A stretch of DNA of 63,677 nucleotides, counting the filler, from Asterionella formosa (taxonomy: Eukaryota): assembly GCA_002256025.1 (NCBI GenBank). It is 21 parts of 21 records of this genome, joined end to end, with 100 filler letters (N's around TTAATTAATTAA, not from the genome) between each part and the next. Parts side by side here need not be neighbours in the genome. Positions count along the whole stretch, not along the records: positions 61,980 to 63,677 come from NKIB01001462.1; 20 more parts are not named here. One strand, written 5' to 3'. Below, one piece after another: positions 10,720 to 63,677 of this stretch. The notes beneath the pieces were generated by a model. That model made no database searches and was not told the DNA's origin. It saw only the letters and a list, made by a program, of their open reading frames with translations. Position 1 is the stretch's first letter. Each line of letters starts with the position of its first letter. A program made the position numbers and the translations under genes.

Positions 10720-10983
10720 TGTTAGGAAACCTACATATGACAATGGTACATAATGACGGATGGACTGTGGTGCAACACAACCAAACAAAGGACGAAAAAG
10801 CGCCATGTAGGGCGCCATGTCAACACAGAACTGATTAGCAGTTCGATTGCCACATCAAATGCTCACTTTACCTAATTATCTGGTTTACAATCAATTTGAC
10901 CACTCTGCACTCTGTGTGAACATTCCCCTCATTCTGTTGTCTTATCGGCACAGTTGGGGGATGCAAATACTGTAGTTTCAACA
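10720..10983 (+). repeat. 5' LTR family A (264 bp)
   Basis: Direct repeat of 16459-16718 with scattered substitutions and indels. Confidence 0.93.
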
Positions 10984-13149
10984 TAATTAGTTAAAGGTTG
11001 AAGTAACAGCAACAAAATGGGGACCAGTGACAATGATGGCCCCAGAGATGACAATATAAACACTCCACAAAAAGAAAAGAAGGAATCAAGGGAGACCAGA
11101 AAGAAACAACACATGTATGGGTACCACAAGCTCATGATACCAAGACAGGAGCCCAAGTTTGAGGGCAAATGCGATGACCTAAAGGGCCACATTTATGACT
11201 GTTCCAATGTAAGACAGCCAGATATCTTCATGAAGAAAACAAAGGAGATTGGAGAATTAGTCAGAAGGACATACAAGTATGGTGGGTAAATCTGGTTGGT
11301 TGTTGAGAATCTGGAGTTACCAGTCATGGCTGAACCAAGTGACCCACCAGAAAATTCGACCAGGACTCAAAAAAGGATCTGGGAAAAGCAAGTTGATGAG
11401 TTTGTAAAGTGGAGACGCTATCTTGCTTAAAAAATCAAGACTTTATACTCATTGGTGTGGGGACAGGAGTGCACCAACATCATGCAACAGAAGATCAAGG
11501 CACTGGACACATTTGATAATATGTTGAGTACAGGTGATGGACTATCACTATTAAGGCCATTAAGGACATGGCATATAATTTCCAAAGCCAAAAATATTTT
11601 CTCCACTTTCTAAATAAATTGAAGTGCCGATTCTACCTATGAACTCAAGGACAGTTTGCAACGACAAATGAAGTATAATTAGAACAGCAGTTTCAAAACT
11701 TAGTTGACATGATTGAACACAGTGGCAGGTCTGTTGGGCATGATCCAGGAATCGAAAAAATCATTGCCACAGAGCAGGGAAAGAATCTATCGACAATGAA
11801 TTCATCTATGAGAGAGGAAATAAAAAGGGATGCCCAGGGGAAGTACCTTGCTGTTGCTTCTTTCCTACTTGGCGCTTACCAATCGCACTTTAGAAGGCCA
11901 GTAGAGAATCTGAAGATCGATTTTTTGCAGGGTCAGAACAATCATCCTACTACGGTCACTGCTGCACATCATCTTCTCACCATCTGGAAACAGGAGTCTC
12001 GGAATCTTTTGCGCCCAATAGGGCCTGCCAGTGATGGTGTGTCATTTACAAATGTCCATGATAATACATCTGATCCTGAAGTCACTCTTGCAAACAATGA
12101 GCCATGTGACAGGGCCAGCATAACATGTCACAAATGCGGCAAGCAAGGGCATTATGCAAAAGAGTGTACTGAGCAACGTCAGTCGGCCGGGAGTGACAAT
12201 ACTCATTGCTGGTATGGAGGATGGAGAGTTCTTGATAACCTTTCAACTGTGGATGTGTTTCAATGTGTTTCACAATGCTGCCTTACTAGGCAATAAACAT
12301 GAGGGTAAGATTCACATGGATATACATTGCGATTCCAGAGTCACTAGCACCAAAATGGTTGGAGAAATGCCTGGATATGGTACAGTGTGGTACCATCCCA
12401 ATGGCATAGCAAACATTCTATCCTTATCCCGAGTGAAGGAAAGGGGATACAGAGTCACACATGACAGCACAAACGGGAACGAGTTCATGGTTCATTAATC
12501 AGATGGGACTTCAAGAATATTAATGGAATCTGAGCAAGGCTTGTAATTGCTTCATGTACACCAATGCCAGCGTGCTAGCCGTCGCTCTAATCAACACAGT
12601 AGCAGATAATCGGTCTAGCTACACAAACTGTGAGTACTCCCGCGCTATGTTGCTAGCTCGTAAAATCCAAATAATGATAGGACGGCCAGCAAGCACACAT
12701 ACTTTAATGAAAATTGATGACAACAACCTACTATCCAACTGTCCAAATAATCGAAGCAACATTGCTGCGGCAGAAAACATTTTTGGGCCAGATTTGAGAT
12801 CTCTTGAAGGCAAAACCATCTATCAGGCAGCCACATGGGTAGAGGCCTACACTGTCAATATCCCAGAAGAAATAATGAGTCAATACCGTGACATCATCCT
12901 TGCTGGACACATCATGTTTGTCAACAAGATACCATTCTTTATGCTGAGAATATCCCGATACATTAAGTTTGGAACTGCCAAGATGATATAAAATCAGCAA
13001 GGTAGTAATACAATCCTTACTGCGATTGTTAAGCAAGTAATGAGCATCTAGATGAAAAGTATATTTTAAAGTATGCGTGATAGAGCCTCGAATATAGTGG
13101 AGTTCGTGGGTTGCACCAGAGCCTAGCGCGCCCGGTAGAAACAATACAA

Positions 13150-16458: not shown

Positions 16459-16718
16459 TGTTAGGAAACCTACATACGACAATTGTACATGATGATGCAT
16501 GGACTGTGGTCCAACACAAACAAATTAAGAAAAAGCGCTATGCTGGGCGCCCTGTCATCACAGAACTGATTAGCAGTTCGATTGCCACATCGAATGCTCA
16601 CTTTAACTTATTATCTGGCTTACAATCAATTTGACCACTCTGCACTCTGTGTGAACATTCCCCTCATTCTGTTGTCTTATCGGCACAGTTGGGGGATGTA
16701 AATACGGTAGTTTCAACA
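16459..16718 (+). repeat. 3' LTR family A (260 bp)
   Basis: Preceded by purine-rich CAGGAGTG; TGTTAGG...TTTCAACA. Confidence 0.93.
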
Positions 16719-16723
16719 GTCCC

Positions 16724-16937
16724 TGTCCGGCAACATGTTGTCTGTATCAGGAAAATGACCGCAACCAGCAGAATTCGAAAAATAGTCAGCACCACAACTA
16801 AAACTCATAATTCTATAAAATCTTTTAGGAATGATTACAATCAACCATTCTTCATAGTATCTACAGCCTATTTGGTCCCTGACATATCCTTACAGGATAC
16901 GAAAAGCAATAGAAGGCTTCAGGGCACAATTTCAACA
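16724..16937 (+). repeat. LTR remnant of copia family C
   Basis: Shares ataattctat-aaa, gattacaatc, tatctacagcctatttggtccctgac, tccttacaggatac and the caatttcaaca end with the LTR at 61980-62238. Confidence 0.8.
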
Positions 16938-33001: not shown

Positions 33002-33396
33002 AATGATGATGAAACACAGTCGATTCTCCTGTTAATTTATGATATTTATTCTTGATATGTTACTCTCTCGCTAGAGCCACACTCAATCGTCGTGTTTCTT
33101 TCGAAAAATGATTGGGACGCTTTGTTTATTCGTTTTTTGTTCGGAGTCGTTGCTGGATAGTACATATAATTTTTTTGTATTACGACCAAGCCAAGAATCG
33201 TTCTGATGATCACATGCACCGCGGTGTACCGGTATTTATTTTGTTTTATTTGTTGGCTGTGGCTGATCGTACATACGTACGTACCGGTATATTCATTCAG
33301 CTGAGACCACAGCCATTCGGGCATCCATGCATGGGTCTTGATCAGAACCATTTTCTGGCCATATGATACGGTAAGCGGTGGGGTGCCAGATACCAG

Positions 33397-33484
33397 CAAG
33401 TTGCGGTCATTTTGCTTAAACTAACATTTCAATCTAGGATAAAAATAGCTAAATCTTTAGTTTCAGCAAAATTACCGCAACTTG
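33397..33484. mobile_element. 88-bp MITE, TIR CAAGTTGCGGT, CAG target duplication
   Basis: cag|CAAGTTGCGGTCATTTTGCT...AGCAAAATTACCGCAACTTG|cag. Confidence 0.85.
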
Positions 33485-33727
33485 CAGGTGCCTGGTACCG
33501 GGGTGTTGCGAAGTCACACTTAGTATCAGCTACATATTCATCACCGAATATTTTTATGATGTGTTATGCTCCTGCAAGGAGAAACAAAGTCGTCGAGAAG
33601 AAATTTCATAGTGGAATAAGGGACATTGACTGGCTGAACAGAATCAAGCTCATATCCTTTCAATCCCCTTCTATGCAATCAAGAAAGTGTCAAAGCTAAA
33701 ATACCGTAGCTCCTTTCCAGCATGTAC

Positions 33728-34014: not shown

Positions 34015-34260
34015 ATTTTGCGAAAGCTGTTCGTCTTAGGAGCTTTAGGGGAAACTCGTCCGAACGCCTGCTAGGAAGGCGGCACAAGCTGCTTGTAGTG
34101 GGGCAACCCTCTATTTCTTGGACACCAGGCAAGACTATATCTATATGGGAAGGTAAGGAGTGTGGGAGTCGAACCCAACAATCGCTTCTTAAAAAATTGC
34201 GGGAATCGAAACTCAGAACTCCAGATTAAAGGCAAGGTGCTATGCCCTACTACGGTTGTC
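34015..34260 (-). repeat. tRNA-derived dispersed repeat, copy 2
   Basis: Reverse strand GACAACCGTAGTAGGGCATAGCACC...GTTTCGATTCCCGCA...GGGTTCGACTCCCAC...AAGCAGCTTGTGCCGCCTT, shared with 23143-23395. Confidence 0.55.
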
Positions 34261-35107: not shown

Positions 35108-35274
35108 TGTTAATATCTGCATATGATGCTCCATACATGCGCCGTACGAACCATACCGGCGCAGCCACCAGATTAGGTACATGCGTGAGTGCTGACAACG
35201 ATGTACTTGGAACAGCAATAGAATAGTCATAATATTGTAGTTCACCTTTATTCACGATAAGGTTCCCCTCAACA
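35108..35274 (+). repeat. 167-bp 5' LTR of copia family B
   Basis: Same sequence as 7759-7925; followed by a leader and gag. Confidence 0.93.
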
Positions 35275-35421
35275 GAACTACAATATCTGTTCTTTCTCTC
35301 TTGTCCGCACCTGCGAAGTTGCGGGTCTTGTTGACAGTGCAAACCAGCACTGGTCTCAACAATCAACCGTCCAGCACCGCTTGCCCGTTCGCTGTCCCTG
35401 TCTCTCAGGCCTTCTTCCACC

Positions 35422-36510
35422 ATGACGACTCCAATCGTTTCCGCTGTTTTCCCCTTCCCTCATCCGCTCTTGACGCCGATCGAGGGCAAACCTACAGCCT
35501 TCACTGTAACCCGCCTTCGCAAGGAACTCTTTGCCAACGCTCGCTCTGTCCACTGTACCAGTGGTGGTGGTGCCAATGGTTTCCTTGGTATTGTCATGGC
35601 TGCTGCTCCTTATCTCTTACGTGCCGGTGAACCCTTTGTACCGCCCGAACATCCCGGCATCCAGCCGACACACAGTGCTACTGCAACACAGTCCCAAATC
35701 ACTGCTGCCAACCGTCTCTTTGACACCTCCCTTGACGCATTCCGCCGTTACTCCCAAATCCGTGAAATTCTCCGACAACAAATTCTAACAGCCATTGACC
35801 CAACCTACTACAACGTTCTGGAAGATGCTACATTTGGATATGCAGACATCACTGTTCTGACCTTACTTGCTCACTTAGAATCTACATATGCAACATTGAG
35901 TGCGGATGATTTGGAACTCAATCGCATGCGCTTGGCCGATGCTTGGACACCAGAGGAACCTATTGAGCATTTATGGATCCGCATCAAACATCTTCGTGCC
36001 ATTGCTGATGCTGGTGGAGAACCTTTCTCTGACAGTACTGTCATGCGATTGACTCTTTCTGCTTTAGAACAGGCTGGTGTATATTCGCATAGCATTCAAA
36101 CTTGGCGTGATCGCGCTGAGCTGGACCGTACATGGGTTAATTTTTGCCCACATTTCATGCATGCTGATAAGGAACGATTGCGCCTTGCCACCGCCACCAC
36201 TGCCGGTTATCATGGTGCCCATGCTGCCATTCAAACCAGTGGCCCTCCCCCATTGCCAGCTATTGCTGCCGCTGCTCGTGCTGTCCCTTCTGGATACACT
36301 TACAACAATGTCCAATTAGGCTATTGTTGGACTCATGGTCTTACCAAAAACCCTGACCATACCAGTGCAACTTGCAATCATCCAGCTTCTGGCCATCAAC
36401 TCAATGCCACCCTTGATCGACGTCTGGGTGGCAGCGTCCGTCTGTTCAGTGATGGTCCCCGTCCTACCCGGCCACCCCGTGTTTCACCGCCACCTTCACC
36501 ACTTGCTTGA
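35422..36510 (+). CDS. Copia family B Gag
   Basis: Intact 362-aa ORF 148 bp downstream of the LTR; GGGANGFLG, DATFGYA, and YCWTHG...HTSATC Zn-knuckle-like motif typical of CoDi-like gags. Confidence 0.88.
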   Translation: MTTPIVSAVFPFPHPLLTPIEGKPTAFTVTRLRKELFANARSVHCTSGGGANGFLGIVMAAAPYLLRAGEPFVPPEHPGIQPTHSATATQSQITAANRLFDTSLDAFRRYSQIREILRQQILTAIDPTYYNVLEDATFGYADITVLTLLAHLESTYATLSADDLELNRMRLADAWTPEEPIEHLWIRIKHLRAIADAGGEPFSDSTVMRLTLSALEQAGVYSHSIQTWRDRAELDRTWVNFCPHFMHADKERLRLATATTAGYHGAHAAIQTSGPPPLPAIAAAARAVPSGYTYNNVQLGYCWTHGLTKNPDHTSATCNHPASGHQLNATLDRRLGGSVRLFSDGPRPTRPPRVSPPPSPLA

Positions 36511-36682: not shown

Positions 36683-37920
36683 NNNNNNNNNNNNNNNNNN
36701 NNNNNNNNNNNNNNNNNNNNNNNNNNTTAATTAATTAANNNNNNNNNNNNNNNNNNNNNNNNNNNNNNNNNNNNNNNNNNNNTTAACTACATTGCATTAG
36801 CTACTCTTAGTGGTCACCACTGTCAAATATTTTACATGGTTTCATGTATGTATAACATGTGTACCAGTATTTATACTAAATTTTTATATGGATGGTGTCT
36901 TTTGCTATTAATTTTGGTGTCCGATGACGTCATGAAACCTATCCCTATCCCCAAATTTGAGCGGATTAGGGTTAGGGTTTCACAATATCTCCACAACCGG
37001 TTTTATTACATCACTAAGCGTGCTCCACAAAAACCGAAAAGTACGTGGAGATATTAAGAGGTTTACAGTATATTTTACCAATGGTGGCCGCCCTTCAACC
37101 TGTGCTTGCAGGCCAGCCAGACGCCCAGTCACGATAACACGTCAGGCGTGACTGGAAGAGAACCTGAATTTGGTGTTTGCATCCGTGTATGTATACGTAT
37201 CACACCCCTTTAACGGGGTACAGGTACCAGGACCAGGTATTTACGATACCCGTATGGTAGTTGCTTATCATCATATGTATTCAAAAGAACATTCGCTCGT
37301 TCAAATTTTATTGGGTTCCTTTACAGAGTTTACCTGTAGCTACCTGGTCAACTGTTTTTTTCTTCTCAATGACCCATCGACTACCAGGTACCGGGATTTC
37401 TGATACTACCCACTAGGTGCAAAGTACTTCCTGGCACCATCACTACCAGCAACGACAGTTCAATCCGTGCTCGCGGAGTATACCGTTAGATGCTTACCGG
37501 CAGATTTCATCAGTCCTTACCGAGACATACTACCAGGTACCAGGTAGGTACCGGTACCTGGTACCCAAGTAACAGTAGACTACCCGGAGTAATTCTGTGG
37601 CTGCATGGCATTTGCGAAATACAGTATTCTGCTGCAATTACAGATATTTAATTATGGACCACGGCAACTACCGGTACATAGCATAAAATATTCTTACCAC
37701 GTGCGTCGTGTGCATACCGGTATTTATACATAAATGGATGTAAATACCGGTTTCTCTCTACAAGCAAATATTGACCCTTTGGATCATGCACTGTGTACCG
37801 ATAAGCACTAGCGGGCACTCCATCATACCGGTATGTACCGGTATTTGAAAATATTTTGTATATTGAAGCAAACACCAGCCAAGCAAGAATGATGCCGGTA
37901 CAAGGAGACAGGTGAACCTG

Positions 37921-37985
37921 CAAGTTGCGGTCATTTGGCTTACCGGTAAATAAAGTTTTAGTTTCAGCACAATTACCGCAACTTG
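37921..37985. mobile_element. 65-bp deleted copy of the CAAGTTGCGGT MITE, CTG target duplication
   Basis: ctg|CAAGTTGCGGTCATTT...AATTACCGCAACTTG|ctg. Confidence 0.85.
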
Positions 37986-38583
37986 CTGGTTACCAGTGTG
38001 GTACCTGGTACAAGGTATCATGTACCAACAACCGGCACTCCCTCCCAGTTGCCTGGTACCTGGTACCAGGTACCAGGTACCTGGTAAATACCCGAGGGAG
38101 AATCGGTAGTCCGTACTTACGTATAACCCAACAAGCGTACCAGTATAAGTCCCGTCTACCGTTACGAGGAAGGATGATGATGTGTTGGGTTTAGTATGTA
38201 CTGTACTCGAACAACAAGGTTTCCTCATAAATATCATACTCTGTTCCTGACTCGATGCATAAAATTGGCATTTAGGCGACCACGCATTACATCAGCCAGG
38301 CCAGTCTCGTCATCGAGCCCTCCGCGAACCAAACAAGCGTGTCCTGTAGTCTACCGGTAGTCACCTCAATCGCAGCTTAAGAGAGTTTACAAGACAGCAG
38401 ATTGTAATTATCTTCATCATTGCTTAATTTTAATAGTTCGCCATAAAATTGGCCATCATGGAAGAGTCATTGCCAGAACAGTCNNNNNNNNNNNNNNNNN
38501 NNNNNNNNNNNNNNNNNNNNNNNNNNNTTAATTAATTAANNNNNNNNNNNNNNNNNNNNNNNNNNNNNNNNNNNNNNNNNNNN

Positions 38584-40072
38584 TCGTTTTGCAACCATGA
38601 AAGCCGAAATTGAAGGAACAACGAGGAAGGTCTCGGTCACTCTGGTGAAGGAAGAGTTTAGATATTTTGTTGAACAACTGGTCAAACAGTTTTCGATTGG
38701 AATTACCCTTCACTGTTTTGGGGCGCCCGATCATATAAGAATATAGCTCCATGAGGTGATCCATTATTCCTTCTTGAATGGAATGGAGTTTTTCAGGAGG
38801 AACGTGCCCATTAACACCAAGAGGATCGCCACCAAAACACAACTGATACCAAAGGGATAGATGAATCTTTGGCTCACATTATCCAATAAATCTTTTATGC
38901 CACGGATTAATAGTTCTTCGTAATCAATCTGACCTACAGGACTGCATTCATGAGATGGATTGTCCGTTTGATCAAACGGACAATCACATTCACGACACAT
39001 TCTGGCAGTCTTTAGATATGTTTTCTTTCGTCCGCATTGTCCATCTAAACCCTCAGCATCACCGAGAATTAGACCAACCGGAACTTTCACATTAAGTGTA
39101 AATTGATTGCCTCCGAAATTGAAAATGTGTTTGAATCCACCAGCTTGTTGGACATTCTTGACCCCCTCAAGAAATATACCAAGTGACATTAGGACAGGCT
39201 CCATGGTGTACTTTCCTTTTTCAACCGTGTGTGTCATGTCAATAAAGAACATGAGTGGAACAAGGAAGTCCTTTGGCTGAGAACATAAATATTCATGGGC
39301 ATCTATCCACCAGGTACCAGTGTGAAATTCGGATCTGACACTGGTGGGTTGTGGAGCTTTACACGGATTGACGAAATCAAATGACACATTTTGTGGTGAC
39401 ATTAGTGTGTCGTCATTTGTCAAGAGATTCTTAACCTGAGCCATGAAATCAAAACATACAACATCAACCAGTTTTCCATCATGCAATATGGCCTGTTTCA
39501 CCTGGGGAGTTAATTCAGTCATGTTAAATCGGTTTTGAAATTCTTTCAGAACAAGATTCAAAAATGAATCCAGCTTCCTGAGCTGTGCTGCAGAAACTCA
39601 TGATTTGATCATACATATAAAGAGGAGAACGGGTGCCGAGCAAAAGAGTAAGCAGTCGAGACTTCATAACATCGCCAACTGAGAATGGTATACCAGGATT
39701 GGCGGAGGAAAACCTAATCCCTGTGGTGCTCAGGACTGGAATAGTATTGGTTTCATCCTGTACCACTATTTCGCTTGTATTTTCTTCATCTTCTTTTTGA
39801 TCAATGTCATATATATTGGTATGATCGCCAAAATGTAGTGTTTGAAAATGTCAAATTTTGGCCCTTTTCTTTAATGACGACGAAAAGTCATCAGCAGGTG
39901 ATGGTGGAGATTGATGAAGTCCATCATATTCTTCCTGACCGTCGTCTGGACCAGTTTCTGGTTTACGAAACAACTCAGCAGCTGTTTCGCATTCGGGGCT
40001 ATGTGCGTAATGACGGTGATGGGAAACAAATGGAACCTTACCACATATCAAACAGCAATCGTCGTTGTTCAT
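38584..40072 (-). pseudogene. Plavaka-like transposase, N-terminal part, frameshifted
   Basis: N-terminal CxxC..HxxxxxxC finger, EFHTGTWW, LMFFIDMTH, MEPVLMSLG, LILGDAEGLD, CRECDCP, HQSDRDLPR spread over four overlapping ORFs. Confidence 0.75.
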
Positions 40073-42084: not shown

Positions 42085-43353
42085 NNNNNNNNNNNNNNNN
42101 NNNNNNNNNNNNNNNNNNNNNNNNNNNNTTAATTAATTAANNNNNNNNNNNNNNNNNNNNNNNNNNNNNNNNNNNNNNNNNNNNCAGCTCCTACTTTGAA
42201 CGTCATTTGGGTGGGTTTTCGTTTAGGAGGTGGTCCTGGAGGAGGAGGTGGTGGCGGCAAGGCAGCCCATTCTGCTGGAGGAGACATGTCGACACGTGTT
42301 CTTGTCGGAGAGTCTTAAGAGTCCTTTTTCGATGAATGAATTCAATTGGGAGGAACAGGTATCTTCTTCGAATGAATTCTGGGAGGCTAAGTCGACTCTT
42401 TTGAGAATTTCATGTGTGTACGAGGAATGAAACGCTGTCAGTGACAATGACGACGACGAAGAACAGAATTTAAGTTTGCATCTCTGCCCACCTGCGATGA
42501 AATTATCGCATGTAATCGCTCAAAATAACAGGCCCGAAAAGGTGGGTCTTTTATAGAGAGCAAATAGTCCGCGACTTCGCCAAAATTGTTGATATTTGCA
42601 GCCAGCCGCGCCATTGTACGATTGACAAATGCTTCCTCAGTGCTATATATATATATTGATTAAAAAAATGCTGAAAAACAAAAAGCCCACTAACTGGGTA
42701 ACGTTAAATAATATGTATGTAGAAGTAATCTGGAGCTCGTACCTCGTAATACACAGAAAAAGATAAACTCTTTGTTCCACATGCAGCCTCCCGTTGTCGC
42801 CGGGATGTTTTAGTCTGTTCTTTTCTTTATTAGGTAAAGCCTCGACTTCGAGTTTCATAGAAATTTCCAACAGACGCCTGGTGCTCGGATGAAAACGTTG
42901 TAGACTTCTGCTCTTCAGTATTTACCGGTACTGCACACTACCAGGTACTTACAAAATAGTGACCACGTTTAACAAACGCTTTGTACAGGTAATGCAGTTT
43001 GTAAGAATAATATTTGCTCTTCCTTGCGCGCTCAAGAAAACTGCCCCAGAATGATGCATCGGTCCAGCTCTTTCGCAGGCCGCTCGTTGTGTCAAATTTC
43101 TCTACATAAGTGCCTCCAAATACTGTACAGACTACCGGTATACATATTTGTAAAAATGTCCTCTGTGTTGTCTGCTTCTCTTCCTCAGACACCAGTCTTT
43201 TTTTCGATATCAACAGCCTAACAAACACATTTGGCCATTATCGGTACCATTGCTAGGCCCCCTATGAAAAAGCGGCATCTGCAAGAATGACTTCAGGTCA
43301 AATACAGTATGCACAGATGACATGGTACCAGGTACCTGGTACATGGTAACATG

Positions 43354-43620
43354 CAAGTTGCGGTAATTTTGCTTACTGTGCTATGTACGTCGTCATCCCA
43401 GCAATATGGTGATTCCACTTGCAAGTTGACACTTGTGCATATCTTTGACAGCTGTTCGATTAATCAACCGGCCGGCTTGTTGTTCCAAATTATATTTAGA
43501 TTAATCTTATTTTAAGCCTAAAATATTGAGACCAATCTGTTTTGCTTATTCTGCCATTTGCTTCCATTGATTTTGCTTATAGTAGGACCGTTTTGCTTAA
43601 AGTTGCAATTTTGCTTAATG
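43354..43620 (+). mobile_element. Terminus of a longer member of the CAAGTTGCGGT family with subterminal TTTGCTTA repeats
   Basis: Starts CAAGTTGCGGTAATTTTGCTTA; TTTTGCTTA recurs at about 43540, 43571, 43591 and 43610. Confidence 0.55.
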
Positions 43621-49383: not shown

Positions 49384-51082
49384 GGATGGCATATTGAGTC
49401 ATACACTTCACGAAAAGCCAACCTTGTCGGGTTTGATGCAAAATCTTCCCGTAAAACTGGAATGCCCATTGTCAGTGCGGTAACAGTAGTGGAGACACAA
49501 GGGAATAAATACCTTCTCCGTGTACATGAAGCTGTGTATAATCAAGGCAGTCCTACCACCCTCCTCTCAGAGTTTCAGTTACGAGAACATGACTGCATTG
49601 TTGATTCTATTTCCACTAAGCACCCAACAAGCATACCAGGCAGGAAAGGAGGACAGTGTTTTCTTCCCCGTCCTCATGTCTACATCCCTTTTATCATTAA
49701 TGGAGGTCTTATGACATTCAGACACCGGTTACCAACAGAACAAGAATTAACATCATTGCCACCTATCGATATCACAGCAGACTTCCCTTGGGATCCTAAC
49801 TCACACTACAGTGACCAATGCTTATCATTGCTGCCATTACAGCAAGATATATCAGTCCAGGTACATAACATTGTACACATGAAAGACGATAAACTCTGCA
49901 CCTCACCATATGTACTCTTGGACTCTACCCTCGATACATACAAGAACCCTTTGGGCTTGGTATTAAACCCAAATCTTGCAGCTGAGAAACCTAACAAAAT
50001 GTGCCATGCTCTCCTTACTACTCGCATAGTCAATCCAAACATTGATGCCCTCAGACCATACCTAGGATTCCAATCAACTGAGGTCATTTCCCATACCTTG
50101 GCCAACACAACACAATTGGCTAAAGCTATATACCGGTATCCCCTTCGACGCCACATTAAATCCCGCTTTCCTCAAGCTAATCGACCACGCCTCAAAGAGA
50201 AGGTAGCAACTGATACATTCTTTGCCAACTGCCGCGACATTACTGGTGCTACTTGTGCACAGGGTTTTTATGGAATCACTTCCCACGTTATCAATGTATA
50301 TGGTATGCCTTCCGAAAACGGTGCCCCCGATGCGTACAACGATTTCCTGCGGCATGAAGGTTGCCCCACCATCTTACGTCGAGATAATTCACGTGTCCAA
50401 TCTGGCTTACGGTTCCAACAACTCAACCGTTTGTATCTGATTGGGGATGAATATACGGAGCCATACCATCCACAGCAGAACATGGCTGAGTTACGGGCAG
50501 TTAAATGGTTGAAGCAACACACCCAATTGCTACTTGATCGAACAGGAGCACCTCCTATGCTTTGGTTGCTAGCATCACAGTACCTTGCTGCTTTACACAA
50601 CCATAGTGCTGATGAGACCCTCAATTGGGCGATTCCCCTCACACTACGTCATGGAGACACCCCTGATATCTCAAAATTCTTACACTTCCAGTTTTATGAG
50701 AAAGTGTATTACTTAGACTACCAAGAGGTATATCCAGATACTAAAGAAAAGCCTGGGTACTGGGTTGGAATTACAGACAATGTGGGGGACATCCTGACCT
50801 ACAAAATCCTCACTGACCATACACAACAAGTGCTACACCGCAGTGTTGTCCGACCATGTGACCCGGCCCACCCCAATCACCGCATACAGTTTAATCCCAT
50901 GAACAATCCTGCGGTAGCCAACACAACTCCTCTTGCCCCCTTACCTGCTTTACATTTCTACTCCACTCCCACCCGTGTCGAACCCACCATTTCCCGCCAG
51001 CGCAAAAGGACACCTGGTGTTACAATACCGACTTCGAGGGGAGCAATAACGTGTGAGAGTCCAATACGCACAGCACAAGAGA
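49384..51082 (+). mobile_element. Copia (CoDi-like) pol fragment with integrase, copy 1
   Basis: Open across the whole contig; VATDTFF, RRDNS, EPYHPQQNMAE, GDTPDIS, WVGITDNVGD. Confidence 0.9.
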
Positions 51083-51182
51083 NNNNNNNNNNNNNNNNNN
51101 NNNNNNNNNNNNNNNNNNNNNNNNNNTTAATTAATTAANNNNNNNNNNNNNNNNNNNNNNNNNNNNNNNNNNNNNNNNNNNN

Positions 51183-52881
51183 TCATACCGGTCAACTTCT
51201 CGTATTCGCGTAGAAGTTGCATACGAAATTTCTGCATTTGCACCTCCCAGTATTCACCATACTTGTCCTCTTTCCAAGCATATTCCACTCCTAGGTGTTT
51301 CTGTAGAATACCCTGCTCGGTAATATTGAAATCTTCCTTGATAACATTTTTCATATACCGGTACTCCACTGCACTTGGAGTCCCACATACAATACCGTCA
51401 TCCACGTAATTAACAAGTAGACCATCAATTTGTCCATCCTTGTTCCGGTGCATAAATAACATAGGGTCGATCTTGCTCTTCGTCATACCTGGTTTATTGG
51501 TGACACATTTCGCAAACGTCCTGGACCAGCATCGTGGAGCTTGTACTATCCCGTACATAGCCTTCACAAGCTTGCAAACATGTGTATCGGAATCGACTCC
51601 GATCAAACCTTGAGGGGGCTCAATATAAATGTCCTCATCGACGTCAGCATTTAGAAATGCTGCTTCCACATCAATAGCCTCCGCTCGCCAACCGTTGTAC
51701 ATCGTCACTGCGAGTACCGTTTTGATTGTCGCATCGCTTGCAACTGGAGCAAATGTCTCAGTAAAATCGACACCTGGGATTTGCTCATATCCCTTCACGA
51801 CCAATCTTGCCTTGTAAATGGTCTTCCCGGTTAACACATCTTCTTTAATTCGAAACACCCATCTCGTTTTTAGTGTTCGCTTCTTAACAGTATCACGTTT
51901 GATAACTTTCCACACTCCTCTCGACTGGAAGTTTTCATATTCTTTGTTGATCGCCTTGATCCACTCTTTCTTGTCTGGTCTTGCCATTGCTTCATCGTAG
52001 CTTGTTGGTAATCCTGGATCAGAAGCCAGACTTGCGTTGTACACAAAATTCACCTGTGTATTCTTCGTAATTTCCTTCATGTTATCCTCCTCGATAACAC
52101 CAGGCATCTCAGTATCTCCTGAAAATTTCACAATTTTCGTACTCGTAGGATTGAACGATGAGTCCAATCTTCGCATTTCACGTGCCAACTTCGCTTGCTT
52201 AGACTGAGCACTTTCCGCACGTTTAGCCTTCACAATTGGGGTATTGGTACCTGTAACCTCGTATTTCGTAGTACCATCTATCTTAGTTGATTGTTCAGTT
52301 TTCCTCCCCAATTCTTGCTTGTCATCATCTTCATCTTCATTATCGGACACTTCTCGAGGTTCGAACTCGTCGTAAAAATCGTCATGTAACTCTTCATTAT
52401 CTTCTCGTACTGATATCTCCGTATCCTGTTGGTTGGTGACTGGCTTGAACATTTTCTCTAGTTGTTTGGAGTTCTCACCTGCGTCATCACATCGGACAAA
52501 TTTAGTCGTATGTCCTGCACCTGCAAGTTTTGTGAGTAACGCTCCAATGACAGTTCCGATGTCACTTTTCTTCTTAATAAAAAAACTCCAGCATTTCCTT
52601 GTATACCGGTAATCGTCCACGGCCATCACCCAATACTGATTTCCCACAGCGGATTTTGCGTAGGGTCCGCTAATATCAATAAACAGTCTTTCTCCTGGTG
52701 TCGTAGCCTTCTCTTGCGTCATCTTGGGTACTGCGCGTGCTTTCGCCTTGGCTGCTGCGCATCCTGCGCACACCTGTAAATTTCCAATAAGTTTCCACCC
52801 AAATAATTTCGATGTCTCACGAAGACATTTTTCCCCCACATGTCCAAGCATTTCATGCGCTTCATTTATTTCCACAATCAC
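51183..52881 (-). mobile_element. Copia pol fragment: GAG-pre-integrase, internally deleted integrase, RT
   Basis: HEMLGH..CAGC, FIDISGP, VRCDDAGE, KARLVVKGYEQIPGVDFTETFAP, DVEAAFL, MYGIVQAPR, YVDD. Confidence 0.92.
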
Positions 52882-52981
52882 NNNNNNNNNNNNNNNNNNN
52901 NNNNNNNNNNNNNNNNNNNNNNNNNTTAATTAATTAANNNNNNNNNNNNNNNNNNNNNNNNNNNNNNNNNNNNNNNNNNNN

Positions 52982-54680
52982 TCTCTTGTGCTGTGCGTAT
53001 TGGACTCTCACACGTTATTGCTCCCCTCGAAGTCGGTATTGTAACACCAGGTGTCCTTTTGCGCTGGCGGGAAATGGTGGGTTCGACACGGGTGGGAGTG
53101 GAGTAGAACTGTAAAGCAGGTAAGGGGGCAAGAGGAGTTGTGTTGGCTACCGCAGGATTGTTCATGGGATTAAACTGTATGCGGTGATTGGGGTGGGCCG
53201 GGTCACATGGTCGGACAACACTGCGGTGTAGCACTTGTTGTGTATGGTCAGTGAGGATTTTGTAGGCCAGGATGTCCCCCACATTGTCTGCAATTCCAAC
53301 CCAGTACACAGGCTTTTCTTTAGTATCTGGATATACCTCTTGGTAGTCTAAGTAATACACTTTCTCATAAAACTGGAAGTGTAAGAATTTTGAGATATCA
53401 GGGGTGTCTCCATGACGTAGTGTGAGGGGAATCGCCCAATTGAGGGTCTCATCAGCACTATGGTTGTGTAAAGCAGCAAGGTACTGTGATGCTAGCAACC
53501 AAAGCATAGGAGGTGTTCCTGTTCGATCAAGTAGCAATTGGGTGTGTTGCTTCAACCATTTAACTGCCCGTAACTCAGCCATGTTCTGCTGTGGATGGTA
53601 TGGCTCCGTATATTCATCCCCAATCAGATACAAACGGTTGAGTTGTTGGAACCGTAAGCCAGATTGGACACGTGAATTCTCTCGACGTAAGATGGTGGGG
53701 CAACCTTCATGCCGCAGGAAATCGTTGTACGCATCGGGGGCACCGTTTTCGGAAGGCATACCATATACATTGATAACGTGGGAAGTGATTCCATAAAAAA
53801 CCTGTGCACAAGTAGCACCAGTAATGTCGCGGCAGTTGGCAAAGAATGTATCAGTTGCTACCTTCTCTTTGAGGCGTGGTCGATTAGCTTGAGGAAAGCG
53901 GGATTTAATGTGGCGTCGAAGGGGATACCGGTATATAGCTTTAGCCAATTGTGTTGTGTTGGCCAAGGTATGGGAAATGACCTCAGTTGATTGGAATCCT
54001 AGGTATGGTCTGAGGGCATCAATGTTTGGATTGACTATGCGAGTAGTAAGGAGAGCATGGCACATTTTGTTAGGTTTCTCAGCTGCAAGATTTGGGTTTA
54101 ATACCAAGCCCAAAGGGTTCTTGTATGTATCGAGGGTAGAGTCCAAGAGTACATATGGTGAGGTGCAGAGTTTATCGTCTTTCATGTGTACAATGTTATG
54201 TACCTGGACTGATATATCTTGCTGTAATGGCAGCAATGATAAGCATTGGTCACTGTAGTGTGAGTTAGGATCCCAAGGGAAGTCTGCTGTGATATCGATA
54301 GGTGGCAATGATGTTAATTCTTGTTCTGTTGGTAACCGGTGTCTGAATGTCATAAGACCTCCATTAATGATAAAAGGGATGTAGACATGAGGACGGGGAA
54401 GAAAACACTGTCCTCCTTTCCTGCCTGGTATGCTTGTTGGGTGCTTAGTGGAAATAGAATCAACAATGCAGTCATGTTCTCGTAACTGAAACTCTGAGAG
54501 GAGGGTGGTAGGACTGCCTTGATTATACACAGCTTCATGTACACGGAGAAGGTATTTATTCCCTTGTGTCTCCACTACTGTTACCGCACTGACAATGGGC
54601 ATTCCAGTTTTACGGGAAGATTTTGCATCAAACCCGACAAGGTTGGCTTTTCGTGAAGTGTATGACTCAATATGCCATCC
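52982..54680 (-). mobile_element. Copia integrase fragment, copy 2 (near-identical to copy 1)
   Basis: Same 1699-bp boundaries with a few SNPs, including RRDNS->RRENS at a probable catalytic Asp. Confidence 0.9.
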
Positions 54681-54780
54681 NNNNNNNNNNNNNNNNNNNN
54701 NNNNNNNNNNNNNNNNNNNNNNNNTTAATTAATTAANNNNNNNNNNNNNNNNNNNNNNNNNNNNNNNNNNNNNNNNNNNN

Positions 54781-56479
54781 TCTCTTGTGCTGTGCGTATT
54801 GGACTCTCACACGTTATTGCTCCCCTCGAAGTCGGTATTGTAACACCAGGTGTCCTTTTGCGCTGGCGGGAAATGGTGGGTTCGACACGGGTGGGAGTGG
54901 AGTAGAACTGCAAAGCAGGTAAGGGGGCAAGAGGAGTTGTGTTGGCTACCGCAGGATTGTTCATGGGATTAAACTGTATGCGGTGATTGGGGTGGGCCGG
55001 GTCACATGGTCGGACAACACTGCGGTGTAGCACTTGTTGTGTATGGTCAGTGAGGATTTTGTAGGTCAGGATGTCCCCCACATTGTCTGTAATTCCAACC
55101 CAGTACCCAGGCTTTTCTTTAGTATCTGGATATACCTCTTGGTAGTCTAGGTAATACACTTTCTCATAAAACTGGAAGTGTAAGAATTTTGAGATATCAG
55201 GGGTGTCTCCATGACGTAGTGTGAGGGGAATCGCCCAATTGAGGGTCTCATCAGCACTATGGTTGTGTAAAGCAGCAAGGTACTGTGATGCTAGCAACCA
55301 AAGCATAGGAGGTGCTCCTGTTCGATCAAGTAGCAATTGGGTGTGTTGCTTCAACCATTTAACTGCCCGTAACTCAGCCATGTTCTGCTGTGGATGGTAT
55401 GGCTCCGTATATTCATCCCCAATCAGATACAAACGGTTGAGTTGTTGGAACCGTAAGCCAGATTGGACACGTGAATTATCTCGACGTAAGATGGTGGGGC
55501 AACCTTCATGCCGCAGGAAATCGTTGTACGCATCGGGGGCACCGTTTTCGGAAGGCATACCATATACATTGATAACGTGGGAAGTGATTCCATAAAAAAC
55601 CTGTGCACAAGTAGCACCAGTAATGTCGCGGCAGTTGGCAAAGAATGTATCAGTTGCTACCTTCTCTTTGAGGCGTGGTCGATTAGCTTGAGGAAAGCGG
55701 GATTTAATGTGGCGTCGAAGGGGATACCGGTATATAGCTTTAGCCAATTGTGTTGTGTTGGCCAAGGTATGGGAAATGACCTCAGTTGATTGGAATCCTA
55801 GGTATGGTCTGAGGGCATCAATGTTTGGATTGACTATGCGAGTAGTAAGGAGAGCATGGCACATTTTGTTAGGTTTCTCAGCTGCAAGATTTGGGTTTAA
55901 TACCAAGCCCAAAGGGTTCTTGTATGTATCGAGGGTAGAGTCCAAGAGTACATATGGTGAGGTGCAGAGTTTATCGTCTTTCATGTGTACAATGTTATGT
56001 ACCTGGACTGATATATCTTGCTGTAATGGCAGCAATGATAAGCATTGGTCACTGTAGTGTGAGTTAGGATCCCAAGGGAAGTCTGCTGTGATATCGATAG
56101 GTGGCAATGATGTTAATTCTTGTTCTGTTGGTAACCGGTGTCTGAATGTCATAAGACCTCCATTAATGATAAAAGGGATGTAGACATGAGGACGGGGAAG
56201 AAAACACTGTCCTCCTTTCCTGCCTGGTATGCTTGTTGGGTGCTTAGTGGAAATAGAATCAACAATGCAGTCATGTTCTCGTAACTGAAACTCTGAGAGG
56301 AGGGTGGTAGGACTGCCTTGATTATACACAGCTTCATGTACACGGAGAAGGTATTTATTCCCTTGTGTCTCCACTACTGTTACCGCACTGACAATGGGCA
56401 TTCCAGTTTTACGGGAAGATTTTGCATCAAACCCGACAAGGTTGGCTTTTCGTGAAGTGTATGACTCAATATGCCATCC
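54781..56479 (-). mobile_element. Copia integrase fragment, copy 3
   Basis: Same 1699-bp boundaries with a few SNPs. Confidence 0.9.
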
Positions 56480-56677
56480 NNNNNNNNNNNNNNNNNNNNN
56501 NNNNNNNNNNNNNNNNNNNNNNNTTAATTAATTAANNNNNNNNNNNNNNNNNNNNNNNNNNNNNNNNNNNNNNNNNNNNACCGTCCCCCTTCCTTGGCAG
56601 TGCTTATTAATTATGTACTCCGCATAGCACAAACCGTCTTTTAATTAATGTTAACTATGAAATACAGTTACCTGTGA

Positions 56678-56764
56678 AAGTTGCGGTAATTTTGCTGAAA
56701 CCAAAGATTTAGCTGTTTTTATCTCAGATTAAAATGTTAGTTTAAGCAAAATGACCGTAACTTG
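56678..56764. mobile_element. CAAGTTGCGGT MITE copy in reverse orientation
   Basis: Reverse-complement match to 33397-33484; flanks tacctg(tg)...ctggtacc. Confidence 0.8.
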
Positions 56765-57264
56765 CTGGTACCTGGCACCAGTGGGGTAGGAACCCTTGTA
56801 CTCCGCAACTGGTAGGAGTACCAGGTACTCCTACTGTACATGGGAGGGAGTTGTACCAGGTACTAGGTACCAGGTACCAGTTCCGATCAGGCGTTGGTTG
56901 TTGGCTTCGCTCGTACCGCCGGTATAGGAAATACTCCTACATACCAGATAATAAATAAGTACGCACGGAACTAACATCAACCATCCATACTCATGATGGG
57001 GGAAGCGGACCCACAGCTGCAGGCGCATGAAGCATTATATTGTTGGTGGTGCGTGGTAAACCACCTTCAGGCGAGCGAAGCCAGCAGCGACAAAAATACA
57101 TCATCACCCGCGGCCCTTGCTTCGGTTTAGCTCTATAACAGGAAGCAACAGATTCCCCACACCATCCACCGCCCCGCCATCTCCATTTCTTGACACTAAC
57201 ATTATTCTTTAGATCTTGTTGTTGTTATTGTGAAATCCCGCGTATATACTCCACCTACAAGACT

Positions 57265-58377: not shown

Positions 58378-60081
58378 GTGCTCAAATCTTTGCAAATGAA
58401 GCGTATTTCGTAAAAGCGTACCCGATGGAGAAGAAGTCTGGCGCGGGTTTGGCGCTCCGACAATTCATTCGTGATTACGGAGCACCTGAGTACCTCACGT
58501 CTGACGGGGCGTCCAAACAGACTGGACCGAAAACGGAATTCATTAAGAACGTAAGGAAGTATGGGATTGAACATCACGTGAGCGAAACTAAACAGCATCG
58601 ACAGAATCGAGCGGAGTCAGTCATTCGTGAAGTGAAAAAGCGATGGTTTCGACAAATGATGAAGCGTCGGGTTCCGAAGCGTTTGTGGGATTACGGAATC
58701 GTGTGGGTGTGTGAAACAATGTCTCTCACTGCTAACTCATCATTTGCGCTGGAAGGTCGGACTCCTATAGAACAAATCACAGGCGAGACACCCGACATAT
58801 CCGAATACTTGGATTTCGGGTTCTACGATTGGGTGTGGTACAAGGATAATGCAGGGGTTGGCAAAAACATGTTCGGGCGCTGGCTTGGTGTGTCTCACCA
58901 AGTCGGTAACCTAATGTCGTATTGGATTCTAACCATTGCTTGTCGCGTTATCTCACGCACTACCGTGCAGCGTTTTTTTATCACTCACCTTGAACTGACA
59001 ACTAGCGAGGTCAACGACAGATGCAAGGAGTACAATGAGAGGATAAAGGAAATAATGCGTGACGACAACCACCAAAATGCAGGCGACGAGGAGGAGCGAC
59101 AATTGCAGGATTGGGATGAATACTCGGATCTGCAGGACGACTCAGTATTTGGCGAAGAGATAAACAATGTTGTGAGCGATCACCAAATACCAGATGCCGA
59201 TGACACTTTCACGCCCGATATTTTCGAGGATATATACCTCAACAAAGAGATAGCGATAGCGAGGGGCGCTGGAGAGGACAACGACGGTGGTCAGTTTGGC
59301 AGAGTCACCAAGAGATTGCGCGACGCCGATGGTAGACCTATCGGCAAGGCTCACGAAAATCCTTTGCTTGACACCAGAGAGTATGAGGTCGAGTTCTTTG
59401 ACGGACACTCAGAGGCATTGTCTTCTAACCTTATTGCTCAGAATTTGTTTTCACAGATAGACGAGGAGGGCGAACGACACGTACTTCTCGACGACATTAT
59501 CGACCATAGGCGGAATGCGACGGCACTCGACAAAGAGGACGCGTTCATCACAATGTCTAACGGTGTCAAGCGGCGGAGACAGACGACTCAAGGGTGGCAA
59601 CTCCTGTGCCAATGGAGGGACGGGAGTACCACTTGGGTCGCACTTAAGGATATGAAGCAATCGTACCCCATACAGGTGGTGGAGTACTCAATTGCTAATC
59701 GTATTGATGACGAGGCAGCGTTCGCGTGGTGGGTGCCGACTCTTCTAAAGAAACGGGACCGAGTCCTAGCAAAGGTAAAGTCTAAGTATTGGCAGCGAAC
59801 TCACAAATACGGTATACGGATACCGAAGTCCGTCGAAGAGGCGTTAGCGATTGATAAAGCCAATGGCAACACATTATGGTGGGACGCCATCTGCAAGGAA
59901 ATGAAAAACGTGCGACCGGCATTTGAAAAGTGGGAAAAGCGAGAGGGAGACCTTCCGCCAGGGTACCAAAAGATAAGGTGTCATTTCGTGTTCGACATCA
60001 AAATGGGCGAAAACTTTCGGCGTAAGGCGAGACTAGTTGCTGACGGCAGCCGGACGGAAACGCCCGCAGCCCTGACGTATT
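58378..60081 (+). mobile_element. Copia (CoDi-like) pol fragment: integrase core, chromo-like segment, RT start
   Basis: LTSDGA, QNRAESVIRE, GETPDISEYLDF, GWQLLCQWRDGSTTW, HKYGIRIP, VFDIKMG..RKARLVA. Confidence 0.92.
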
Positions 60082-60181
60082 NNNNNNNNNNNNNNNNNNN
60101 NNNNNNNNNNNNNNNNNNNNNNNNNTTAATTAATTAANNNNNNNNNNNNNNNNNNNNNNNNNNNNNNNNNNNNNNNNNNNN

Positions 60182-61979: not shown

Positions 61980-62238
61980 GAAAATATTTTAGGAAAGAAA
62001 ATCCCGGTATAAATTACCTACTACATATTGAATCGAATGAATCAAGAAAGAATATGGTACCAGAGAATTCGAAAACAATCTACGCCAACAGTAAAAACCC
62101 ATAATTCTATTAAAACTCTTAGGAACGATTACAATCGATCACGGAGACATCGTTGTTATATCTACAGCCTATTTGGTCCCTGACGTGTCCTTACAGGATA
62201 CAAGAAAGCATAGAGTGCTTCGGGACGCAATTTCAACA
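61980..62238 (+). repeat. 5' LTR of copia family C (5' end cut by contig edge)
   Basis: Ends TTTCAACA exactly where similarity to 16724-16937 ends; gag follows. Confidence 0.8.
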
Positions 62239-62371
62239 GTTTTAATAGAATTAGCCGGCCAGGAAGAGCCGTGATACCACAATCAACAACAAGCGGACAA
62301 TTGAGAGTCCGGAGACAAGATCTGAGGGTACCAGACCATCCAGAGTCTGAAGAAGTCGCACAAGGCGCATC

Positions 62372-63677
62372 ATGAGTGGCAAAGGAAAGTTTACCAAGAA
62401 GGCTCAAGCCAAGGGAGGGAGCAATATTGCTTCTCAATCAATCAAGAAGTCAGTCAATGACTATAACTACTACCTCGGATCATCGAAGCAGGCATCTGAT
62501 TATGAGACTACTACTGAGTACCTCATCAATCATATCAAGAAAGTGTTCGACTATGGCAACGACATAGGAACCGCGCTCGAGTTATTAGAACCAATGAGCA
62601 CATTGGCATGGAAGCCAAGAATGCAAGTGAGCATTGCAACAACAGAAGAAGATCGCGCTGCAGAGAATCGACAATATGAGATTGAAGACAAGGCTGACTA
62701 TGACACCTACAGTAAAAGGGTACAGGCCTACGAAAATAATAATACCAAGGCATATGCGTTGCTCTGGGAAAGATGCAACAAAGCCATGAAGAACAAGATT
62801 GAAGCGAGATCCAATTACAATAGGATCGAAAATAACCCAATAACATTGCTTATGGCAATTAAAGAACACGCACTAAATTTTCAAGAAAATCGATATTTTA
62901 TGTCGATCATTTTAGATGCGATGAAAATGCTTTTATTTACAAAGCAGAAAGAAGGAGAAAGTCTACAAGACTACACCAAGAGATTCCGTGTGGCATGTGA
63001 TGTGCTCAAGTCACACATGGGAGGACCCATTATCCTCACCAAGTTCGTTGAAGCCATGGATGGATACAACGAGACCGACATCAAACAACAAGATAAATTT
63101 CGTGAACAAGCTTTCAGTCAATTTATGGCATATATATATCTTGATAATGCCGACAAGGCCAAATACAGATCAATTATGACCGGGCTGAACACTCAACAAT
63201 CACTCGGCAACGATCAATACCCAAAAACAATCACCGAATCAAATAATGTTCTCAGCAACCATCGGTTTGACATAACAAATAAATCCGTCTACAAGAAACC
63301 AGGAGATAAAGATAAAGAGAAGAAACAGAAGGATGCAGGCAGGGAAGACGAAGACGTGAACTTATCGTTCGCACAGTTAGAAGGAAAATGTTACTGCTGC
63401 GGAAAAGCAGGTCACAAATCCCCTTCGTGCCGAGACAAGAATAAACCCAAAGAGGAATGGGCTATCAACAAGGCTCAAAGCCATGCACAGGCACAGGCTA
63501 CTAATACATCCGACACGAGTACAGTTACCTCTGTTAATTCCAACAACCCGCCGTCATCACAAGCTTCACAACAAGCAAATGCCAATCAATTTGGATGGAC
63601 GGGAGCTCATATAAAACTACAATTTTACCAAGCATCTGAGATGCGTGACTGGATACTATTGGATAATCAATCAAGTG
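62372..63677 (+). CDS. Copia family C Gag-protease, open to the window end (missing from the ORF track)
   Basis: MSGKGKF..., YYLGSSKQASDYETTTEYLINHI, KAYALLWERC, SLGNDQYPKT, Zn knuckle CYCCGKAGHKSPSC, protease WILLDNQSS. Confidence 0.9.
   Translation, partial: MSGKGKFTKKAQAKGGSNIASQSIKKSVNDYNYYLGSSKQASDYETTTEYLINHIKKVFDYGNDIGTALELLEPMSTLAWKPRMQVSIATTEEDRAAENRQYEIEDKADYDTYSKRVQAYENNNTKAYALLWERCNKAMKNKIEARSNYNRIENNPITLLMAIKEHALNFQENRYFMSIILDAMKMLLFTKQKEGESLQDYTKRFRVACDVLKSHMGGPIILTKFVEAMDGYNETDIKQQDKFREQAFSQFMAYIYLDNADKAKYRSIMTGLNTQQSLGNDQYPKTITESNNVLSNHRFDITNKSVYKKPGDKDKEKKQKDAGREDEDVNLSFAQLEGKCYCCGKAGHKSPSCRDKNKPKEEWAINKAQSHAQAQATNTSDTSTVTSVNSNNPPSSQASQQANANQFGWTGAHIKLQFYQASEMRDWILLDNQSS

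Follow-up and report, generated by a model that had tools for sequence, protein, structure and literature searches.

Self-priming of reverse transcription is established for the retrotransposons Tf1 and Tf2; for the Tf1/sushi group, which belongs to Ty3/gypsy, it has been inferred. Drosophila copia is primed by half a tRNA. To our knowledge, experimental proof of self-priming is confined to Tf1 and Tf2, and its prediction for copia elements to a single plant lineage. According to the available text of PMC5341516, which cites Levin 1995 for the Tf1 mechanism, the self-primer, located where R begins, anneals with the primer-binding site (PBS), is cut off by an enzyme of the element itself and is extended to strong-stop cDNA. 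In Tf2 a downstream start yields a primer-less RNA, and the choice of start decides whether reverse transcription takes place (PMC5341516, same text). Among copia elements, the accessible sections of PMC6317226 propose self-priming for rice Houba and Osr-1 and predict it for the plant Ty1/copia lineage TAR, with the criterion that at least 10 bp of the 5′ LTR be complementary to the region 0–5 bp past the LTR. The same sections name half tRNA-Met as the primer of Osser and Bryco and half tRNA-Ile as that of Bianca. Fungal GalEa copia elements have no classical PBS and carry a Conserved Hairpin Site at the PBS position, as far as the available part of PMC5445492 describes them. For diatoms, Maumus et al. 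2009 (PMC2806351) use in their main text none of the terms PBS (except as wash buffer), primer binding, tRNA, priming or PPT, and our search of the literature outside subscription journals met with nothing on how diatom copia elements are primed or on their PBS.

The window analysed here is a stretch of 63,677 nt from Asterionella formosa (assembly GCA_002256025.1). Its 21 pieces were strung together artificially with N44-TTAATTAATTAA-N44 linkers; 20 of the pieces are about 1.7 kb in size and one is 27.7 kb (7211-34881). The element of main interest, family C, has its LTR junction on the final piece (61980-63677), which holds a single copy of the family C LTR.

61980..62238, plus strand: 5′ LTR of family C, 259 of 266 bp present, ending in ...TTTCAACA; delimited by metagenome copies.
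62372..63676, plus strand: gag-pol open frame, its first 435 aa with a CCHC knuckle, open at the window end; from frame reading.
16764..16937, plus strand: remnant of a solo LTR whose family is related to C, with 78% identity over 183 nt.

A search of the metagenome collection with a 23-nt core from the family C LTR returned six contigs, all near-identical to C. Three of them (L001, L004 and L005) place the true LTR start, TGTTGGA, 7 nt upstream of the piece start, so the absence of the first 7 nt reflects a contig end and not biology; the full LTR in the metagenome contigs is 266 bp long with TG...CA ends. The polypurine tract CAGCAGGAGTG lies directly 5′ of the LTR start in these same three contigs, and L003 has an unrelated 5′ flank at that place, three different flanks being found among the six. 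Past the LTR end ...CAACA, four of the six contigs (L001, L003, L004 and L006) continue into the PBS and two (L002 and L005) into unrelated flanks. The polypurine tract and the varied flanks indicate a mobile LTR element at several insertion sites. The family C LTR is genuine, and its end at 62238 is independently confirmed by the metagenome copies. As for the related solo LTR, its final 80 nt scored 85% identity to the family C LTR in one comparison and 88% in another, and no PBS follows its end.

A leader of 118 nt separates the PBS from the gag frame. The 435 aa of family C are 93% identical to the first 435 aa of P0001, a 1624-aa polyprotein from a public assembly which carries RVT_2 (copia-type reverse transcriptase, RT) near its C-terminus, and in the alignment consensus of full-length relatives a DDE integrase-like motif lies ahead of the RT. 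The nearest named relatives of the family C protein are from Fragilaria crotonensis (71%), Nitzschia inconspicua and Epithemia. Ty1/copia marks, pooled across families, comprise RVT_2 (in P0001, in the window piece 51127-52881 and in a relative of family B), CCHC gag (families C and A), TG...CA LTRs (TGTTGG...CAACA) and a 5-bp target duplication (family A). Family C is a Ty1/copia LTR retrotransposon, and its host is most likely a pennate diatom.

The junction itself is made up of the following parts:

62239..62253, plus strand: PBS of family C, 15 nt, GTTTTAATAGAATTA, directly 3′ of the LTR and with no TGG start; from an inverted-repeat scan.
62102..62117, plus strand: proposed self-primer, the putative first 15-16 nt of the element RNA and start of R; complement of 62238-62253.
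62099..62101, plus strand: CCA, which resembles an initiator of the YCA type and borders the complementary site on its 5′ side, with A 62101 as proposed start; from sequence context.
62118..62237, plus strand: structured R-U5 loop between primer and PBS; from a predicted fold.

The preliminary description of this locus had claimed a 15-nt exact complement between the PBS and the element's own LTR, and it is present: GTTTTAATAGAATTA (62239-62253) is the exact reverse complement of TAATTCTATTAAAAC (62102-62116), as seen by direct reading, by self-blastn and by the inverted-repeat scan. The last LTR base, A 62238, also pairs with T 62117, which brings the match to 16 nt. The post-LTR bases are GTT and not TGG. 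When the family C LTR was shuffled, an anchored exact complement of at least 15 nt arose in 0 of 20,000 shuffles. The self-primer site is invariant in L001-L005, and the PBS is identical in L001, L003, L004 and L006.

Three copia families with different PBS sequences had been claimed for this stretch, and all three (A, B and C) are found in the window. The parts of the other two are as follows:

35108..35274, plus strand: 5′ LTR of family B, 167 bp, with an identical copy at 7759-7925.
35275..35286, plus strand: PBS of family B, 12 nt, exact complement of the self-primer site 35232-35243.
10720..10983, plus strand: 5′ LTR of family A, with the site 10866-10878 one mismatch away from the PBS.
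10984..10996, plus strand: PBS of family A, 13 nt, matching the LTR site with one mismatch.
16459..16718: 3′ LTR of family A, with the site 16601-16613, one mismatch, at a position other than that in the 5′ LTR.

The family B copy at 7759-7925 serves as a 3′ LTR, located behind the end of a pol frame. The 12-nt complement of family B was equalled in 1 of 20,000 shuffles, and the fold with the 5′-end:PBS helix has a z of -4.85. For the gag of family B (35422-36510) there is a single long relative, an RVT_2 protein of 1585 aa from Fistulifera solaris, and a tblastn search with the C-type polyprotein missed family B; together these mark B as belonging to a divergent copia lineage. Family A, although decayed, is complete. 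In a repeat search its LTR pair was 93% identical over the last 202 nt and 88% over the first ~70 nt, and its target-site duplication reads GTCCG/GTCCC. A complement with at most one mismatch was obtained in 2 of 5,000 shuffles of the 5′ LTR and in 4 of 5,000 of the 3′ LTR, and the fold has a z of -3.60. In the simplest history, the 13-nt duplex would have been perfect at insertion, and each LTR would have acquired one mutation afterwards. Separately, the repeats at 33384-33489, 37908-37990 and 56664-56769 were considered as LTR-end/PBS pairs and rejected, being palindromic MITE-like units with no LTR or gag adjoining.

Wider searches were made with a profile built from 26 full-length relatives. 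In the prokaryote genome collection the profile search gave 18 loci, and a second search in five of those bins added L073; these loci in bacterial metagenome-assembled genomes (MAGs) are mis-binned diatom copia elements. In the viral contig collection the polyprotein profile gave 23 pattern matches and no relatives, and the family C LTR core gave no matches. Altogether, nine Ty1/copia families with the same layout were obtained, namely A, B and C in the window and six from MAG bins:

L007: complement of 16 nt, 0 of 20,000 shuffles.
L008: complement of 16 nt, 0 of 20,000 shuffles.
L015: complement of 15 nt, likewise in a second copy of the family in the locus, 0 of 20,000 shuffles.
L018: complement of 15 nt, 0 of 20,000 shuffles.
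L009: complement of 14 nt, 0 of 20,000 shuffles.
L073: complement of 14 nt with one mismatch, 0 of 5,000 shuffles.

The complement begins at base 0 after the LTR in all nine testable families, is 12-16 nt long, and is exact in seven and interrupted by one mismatch in two (A and L073). All nine thus have the complementarity of at least 10 bp, starting 0–5 bp after the LTR, by which self-primers are recognised in the available sections of PMC6317226. The self-primer site lies 43 to 237 nt from the LTR end in the testable families. A TGG start was found at 0 of 12 junctions (A, B, C, L007, L008, L009, L015, L018, L073, L012, L019 and L021), so the reported absence of a TGG-type tRNA PBS from family C extends to every junction inspected. 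Three of these junctions (L012, L019 and L021) showed no complement within the 99, 55 and 91 nt of LTR, respectively, that precede them before the contig start. They are not counted as negatives because the LTR part is too short, given the distances seen elsewhere. Their LTR ends read ...CAACA followed by A+T-rich sequence. Judged by their sequences, the families come from two or more copia lineages that have diverged from each other. L023/L058 have a 12-nt inverted repeat following ...CTCA, which falls within coding sequence and was taken as chance.

Each PBS is specific to its own LTR. In a table of seven by seven families, the PBS matched its own LTR over 12-16 nt (family A, 7 exact) and the LTR of any other family over at most 7 nt. 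The covariation of PBS and LTR, a check that had been called for earlier, was followed across eight families at 12 positions, with pairs counted by script in a register anchored at the LTR end. This anchored counting was used because MAFFT alignments, both of the eight R-U5-PBS segments and of C with L007, lost the register of the helix arms. With the own partner, 95 of 96 cells were Watson-Crick pairs, and covariation extends to all 12 positions, each of which has two or more types of pair. With swapped partners in the same register 301 of 672 cells paired (0.448), a background that is high because all PBSs are A+T-rich and related. Families C and L007 are 71% identical; 6 of 15 homologous positions of their sites differ, and all six differences are compensated in the PBS.

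Minimum-energy folds were computed for single sequences from the self-primer site to just past the PBS. In 7 of 7 families folded, the closing stem is the 5′-end:PBS helix, with z between -2.6 and -6.5 (family C, -4.67). A long U5 stem (62173-62180 : 62222-62230) is predicted in common for C and L007, and in the alignment fold of these two, 8 of 20 predicted pairs have changed on both sides and still pair. These comparisons support the earlier proposal, made from three families, that the pairing and not the sequence is conserved, as far as sequence comparison can speak to it, and extend it to nine families.

The position of the site within the RNA was considered from two sides, the sequence at its 5′ edge and public RNA libraries. 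CTCA, TCA or CCA with its A at -1 or +1 of the site occurs in 8 of 9 families, and the edge motif of family B is TCA followed by 2 nt. We take this YCA motif to be an initiator, presumably in agreement with the Inr consensus; read in this way, it would be a hint that the RNA has its 5′ end at the site. The family C stretch occurs in 18 public runs from 12 studies, 13 of them on record as RNA. The samples are estuary, lake and other freshwater, and there is one poly(A) algal library. Four runs from four studies (X1, X2, X6 and X9) were compared with family C at 90% likeness. These runs consist of assembled contigs, in which transcript starts are not visible and depth cannot rank parts of the element.

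RNA-library contigs of three studies (X1 record 1, X2 record 10 and X6 record 19) bridge U5, PBS and gag, and no joints were reported among the contigs of X1, X2, X6 and X9. The proposed start is spanned by X2 record 9 (62004-62175), X9 record 25 (62006-62146) and X1 record 1 (61980-62415). Such contigs would be given by U3-R of the 3′ LTR in full-length RNA, by DNA or by read-through. Bin 62094-62150 shows a weak step in contig depth; with the reservation that depth in contig runs cannot rank parts, neither this step nor the peak at 62151-62238 was taken as evidence for a start. Under the same reservation, the summed contig depth of ~62151-62238, the last ~88 nt of the LTR, is ~60 to 600 times that of the gag region in X2 and X9 (104,487 at the LTR end vs 175-1,845 in X2; 21,989 vs 10-117 in X9). 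A number of contigs have their beginning near 62149-62169, which is downstream of the proposed primer. Many diverge into unrelated sequence exactly past 62238 or 62239 (X2, 4+2; X6, 2; X9, 6+1), and X9 records 27 and 28 are examples that do both.

Contigs confined to the LTR end allow several explanations. They may come from related families with kept U5 stems and other PBSs, or from read-out of 3′ and solo LTRs into their flanks, such flanks being present in 2 of 6 DNA copies. By analogy with Tf2, they may also reflect a downstream start that gives primer-less RNA. If the abundant contigs at ~62149-62238 mean that a main transcription start lies downstream of the primer, this could count against self-priming.

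The base after the LTR is by definition the seat of the 3′ end of the minus-strand primer. A PBS at precisely the primer position, together with the lack of a TGG start in any family, makes self-priming the best reading of these junctions. The same two features argue for the tRNA-independent self-priming which the preliminary description had put forward. We estimate the probability that family C primes its own reverse transcription by Tf1/Tf2-type self-priming at about 0.8. The individual steps in family C, from transcription start to re-templating of the PBS, are those we infer from the arrangement of the sites. Transcription would start at or next to the A of the YCA motif within the LTR (~62101). 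Nucleotides 1 to 15-16 of the RNA (62102-62117) would fold back over a structured R-U5 of ~120 nt, and this 5′ end would pair with the 15 nt after the LTR (62239-62253). The element's RNase H would then cut the RNA at the 3′ end of the duplex, and the freed 5′ piece would be extended by reverse transcriptase through U5 and R into minus-strand strong-stop DNA. During plus-strand synthesis the primer would be copied, so that the PBS is rewritten from the start of R in each cycle. Such rewriting would keep the two sites complementary while both drift. Under the general replication scheme, it may thereby explain why active-looking copies are perfectly complementary while the families differ.

The helix may be real and serve another end than priming, as a long-range stem between R and the leader with a role in packaging, dimerisation, translation control or RNA stability, while the element uses some other primer. 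Covariation and folds demonstrate pairing and not priming, and the abundant species in the RNA libraries covers the U5 part only, without the 5′ arm, both of which fit a structural stem. We nevertheless consider it unlikely, as the 3′ arm begins at the first post-LTR base in every testable family, whereas a purely structural role gives no reason for anchoring at the very base that defines the LTR edge, and a site for another primer, e.g. a TGG start, is seen at none of the 12 junctions. It is very unlikely that the primer is an RNA of the host, for instance half a tRNA, a tRNA of an organelle or a small RNA, and that the LTR site resembles this RNA by descent or mimicry. Copia elements elsewhere do use internal tRNA fragments, as given in the accessible sections of PMC6317226. 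The PBSs are all A+T-rich and some have short motifs in common, which we would also expect from common descent. Nine different PBSs would, however, need nine different host primers. The longest anchored complement to 38 distinct tRNAs from the MAG bins was 4-8 nt, which is a weak test since these tRNAs are mostly not of diatom origin. The LTR site has no tRNA-like feature, Rfam giving no match at E up to 10 over 61980-62400, and ARAGORN found no tRNA in the window or in loci L001-L024.

Priming might also occur in trans, with the 5′ end of a second RNA copy or a short LTR transcript annealing to the PBS. Retroelement particles package RNA dimers, and complementarity alone cannot separate cis from trans. 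Against this stand the intramolecular fold, which is the minimum-energy structure in each of the seven families folded, and the U5 stems, which are conserved with compensatory changes as expected of a recognised structure; we give priming in trans a chance slimmer still than a host primer. A chance inverted repeat is barely credible. The sequences are A+T-rich and of low complexity and shuffles occasionally reach 12-14 nt, but none of the shuffles for C reached 15 nt, and the anchored feature recurs in nine families.

The mechanism and a copia precedent (TAR) were already known; the diatom host group is new, and the comparative support is unusually clean. Nine diatom families provide a second, independent place to study tRNA-independent priming and bear on how old hairpin priming may be among LTR elements. 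Annotation is affected as well. The PBS search of LTRdigest relies on tRNA matches. Filtering with LTRdigest keeps only LTR candidates with a recognised PBS, according to the available text of PMC7466962. Pipelines that require a PBS may, if tRNA-based, discard self-priming elements, which would lead to an undercount of copia in diatom genomes. Given the RNA libraries from estuary, lake and freshwater, family C may be active in natural populations.

A broader and more doubtful proposal is that self-priming is general, perhaps ancestral, in diatom copia elements, with the primer bound to an initiator and with U5-only RNA acting as a brake on transposition. It is suggested by the presence of at least two lineages too divergent for mutual detection by tblastn, and we hold it only tentatively, as the less probable side of the question. 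If it were true, the choice of start would decide whether an RNA is reverse transcribed, as for Tf2. The RNA at ~62149-62238 would then derive from a downstream start, or be a processed U5 fragment without the primer, and would act as a built-in or host-imposed brake on transposition. Elements of this kind would also be invisible both to tRNA-fragment silencing and to annotation pipelines based on a tRNA PBS.

Tf1 and Tf2 of Schizosaccharomyces pombe resemble the present families, as does the Tf1/sushi group, in having a PBS that adjoins the 5′ LTR and is the complement of the beginning of R, and in having a structured U5. They belong to Ty3/gypsy, whereas the diatom families are Ty1/copia, with RVT_2 and an integrase-like motif before the RT. 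The Ty3/gypsy order, with RT before integrase, is not what is found, which places family C outside the Tf1/sushi clade. The Tf1 duplex is 11 nt long, compared with 12-16 nt in the diatom families. Priming of Tf1 has been shown by experiment, while that of the diatom copia families is deduced from their sequences.

The CoDi elements described by Maumus et al. 2009, copia lineages specific to diatoms, agree with the present families in host group and superfamily, and the closest named proteins come from Fragilaria crotonensis, Nitzschia inconspicua, Epithemia and Fistulifera solaris. Osser, Bryco and Bianca are likewise Ty1/copia elements with a PBS lacking a TGG start. Their PBS, as described in the available sections of PMC6317226, matches an internal part of a tRNA and is common across families, whereas the diatom PBSs are family-specific and match their own LTR. 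GalEa shares with the diatom families the copia type, the lack of a classical PBS and, where the PBS would lie, a structure that is conserved; in the accessible part of PMC5445492 its site has no LTR complement and the Tf1 model is ruled out by the authors, in contrast to the diatom families, every testable one of which does have the complement. TAR, including Houba and Osr-1, likewise comprises copia elements with no tRNA-type PBS and with an LTR complement of the post-LTR region (PMC6317226, same sections). TAR occurs in land plants and the present families in diatoms, and in both self-priming is a prediction.

In the LTR of the copia family C, the last ~88 nt (62149-62238), which lie downstream of the proposed self-primer (62102-62117), had a summed contig depth ~60-600 times that of the gag region in the public RNA-library runs X2 and X9, although contig depth cannot rank parts of a stretch. 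Across X2, X9 and a run from another study, X6, several contigs started near 62149-62169 and many switched to unrelated sequence right after 62238/62239, where the LTR meets the primer binding site (PBS). An additional branch point followed 62196 in contigs from two studies. The excess and divergence of contigs at this U5 end (62149-62238) could stem from related families with other PBSs, from LTR read-out or from a downstream start. Relative to the window copy, contigs of all three runs, each from a different study, also carried an 18-nt in-frame insertion at 62403, within the basic repeat at the N-terminus of the family C gag.

Across all loci and the LTR edges in the window, families of the C/A lineage are nearly identical where the purine tract gives way to the LTR (…AGGAGTG followed directly by TGTTGG/TGTTAG…) and at the LTR end (…CAACA), the exception being L008, a locus from the prokaryote genome collection, which ends in …CAAGA. 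Unlike these edges, the remainder of the LTRs is not alignable between families. Solo LTR fragments related to these two families are present, the C-related one directly downstream of the family A insertion:

8000-8256: family A-related, 80% across its final 76 nt, with the end ...TTTCGACA
16719-16937: family C-related, 78% over 183 nt

In the decayed family A element, a 9-nt unit is repeated ~30 times or more as an array (14454-14894) inside an open frame (14391-15299) for which there was no Pfam match.

Diatom copia elements were also present in bacterial MAG records of the genome collection (L007-L024, G001-G005). Their presence in these bins, with at least seven such contigs in bin G003, points to eukaryotic contamination of the bins.

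The window (1-63677) was put together artificially from 21 contigs, with N44-TTAATTAATTAA-N44 linkers between them, and adjoining pieces are therefore not genome neighbours. Twenty contigs measure 1698-1704 bp, ordered roughly by size, and the single long one spans 27,671 bp (7211-34881). Further open frames were as follows:

701-1756 and 38764-39561: DNA-transposase domains
49462-51138, 52926-54602, 54725-56401 and 58425-60137: 558-570 aa, each filling a whole 1.7-kb piece

The four long frames had no Pfam match; two pieces, with starts at 52982 and 54781, are identical over their first 200 nt. Among the two transposase frames, a DDE_Tnp_4 domain of the PIF/Harbinger type was matched at E 1.4e-23, and a second match, to Plavaka, was weak and below the cut-off (E 2.5e-5).

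Two kinds of small repeat were found:

23160-23340 and 34020-34260: two-copy repeat with a tRNA T-arm-like stretch in reverse-complement orientation (…GAGTCGAACCC…)
33384-33489, 37908-37990, 43341-43376 and 56664-56769: palindromic units of ~80-105 bp

The two-copy repeat may be a tRNA-derived SINE; ARAGORN called no tRNA in either copy. In the palindromic units an A+T-rich loop separates two inverted arms (...CAAGTTGCGGT[CA]ATTT...) and low-complexity sequence rich in GGTACC/ACCGGT adjoins them; in appearance, these units resemble MITEs.
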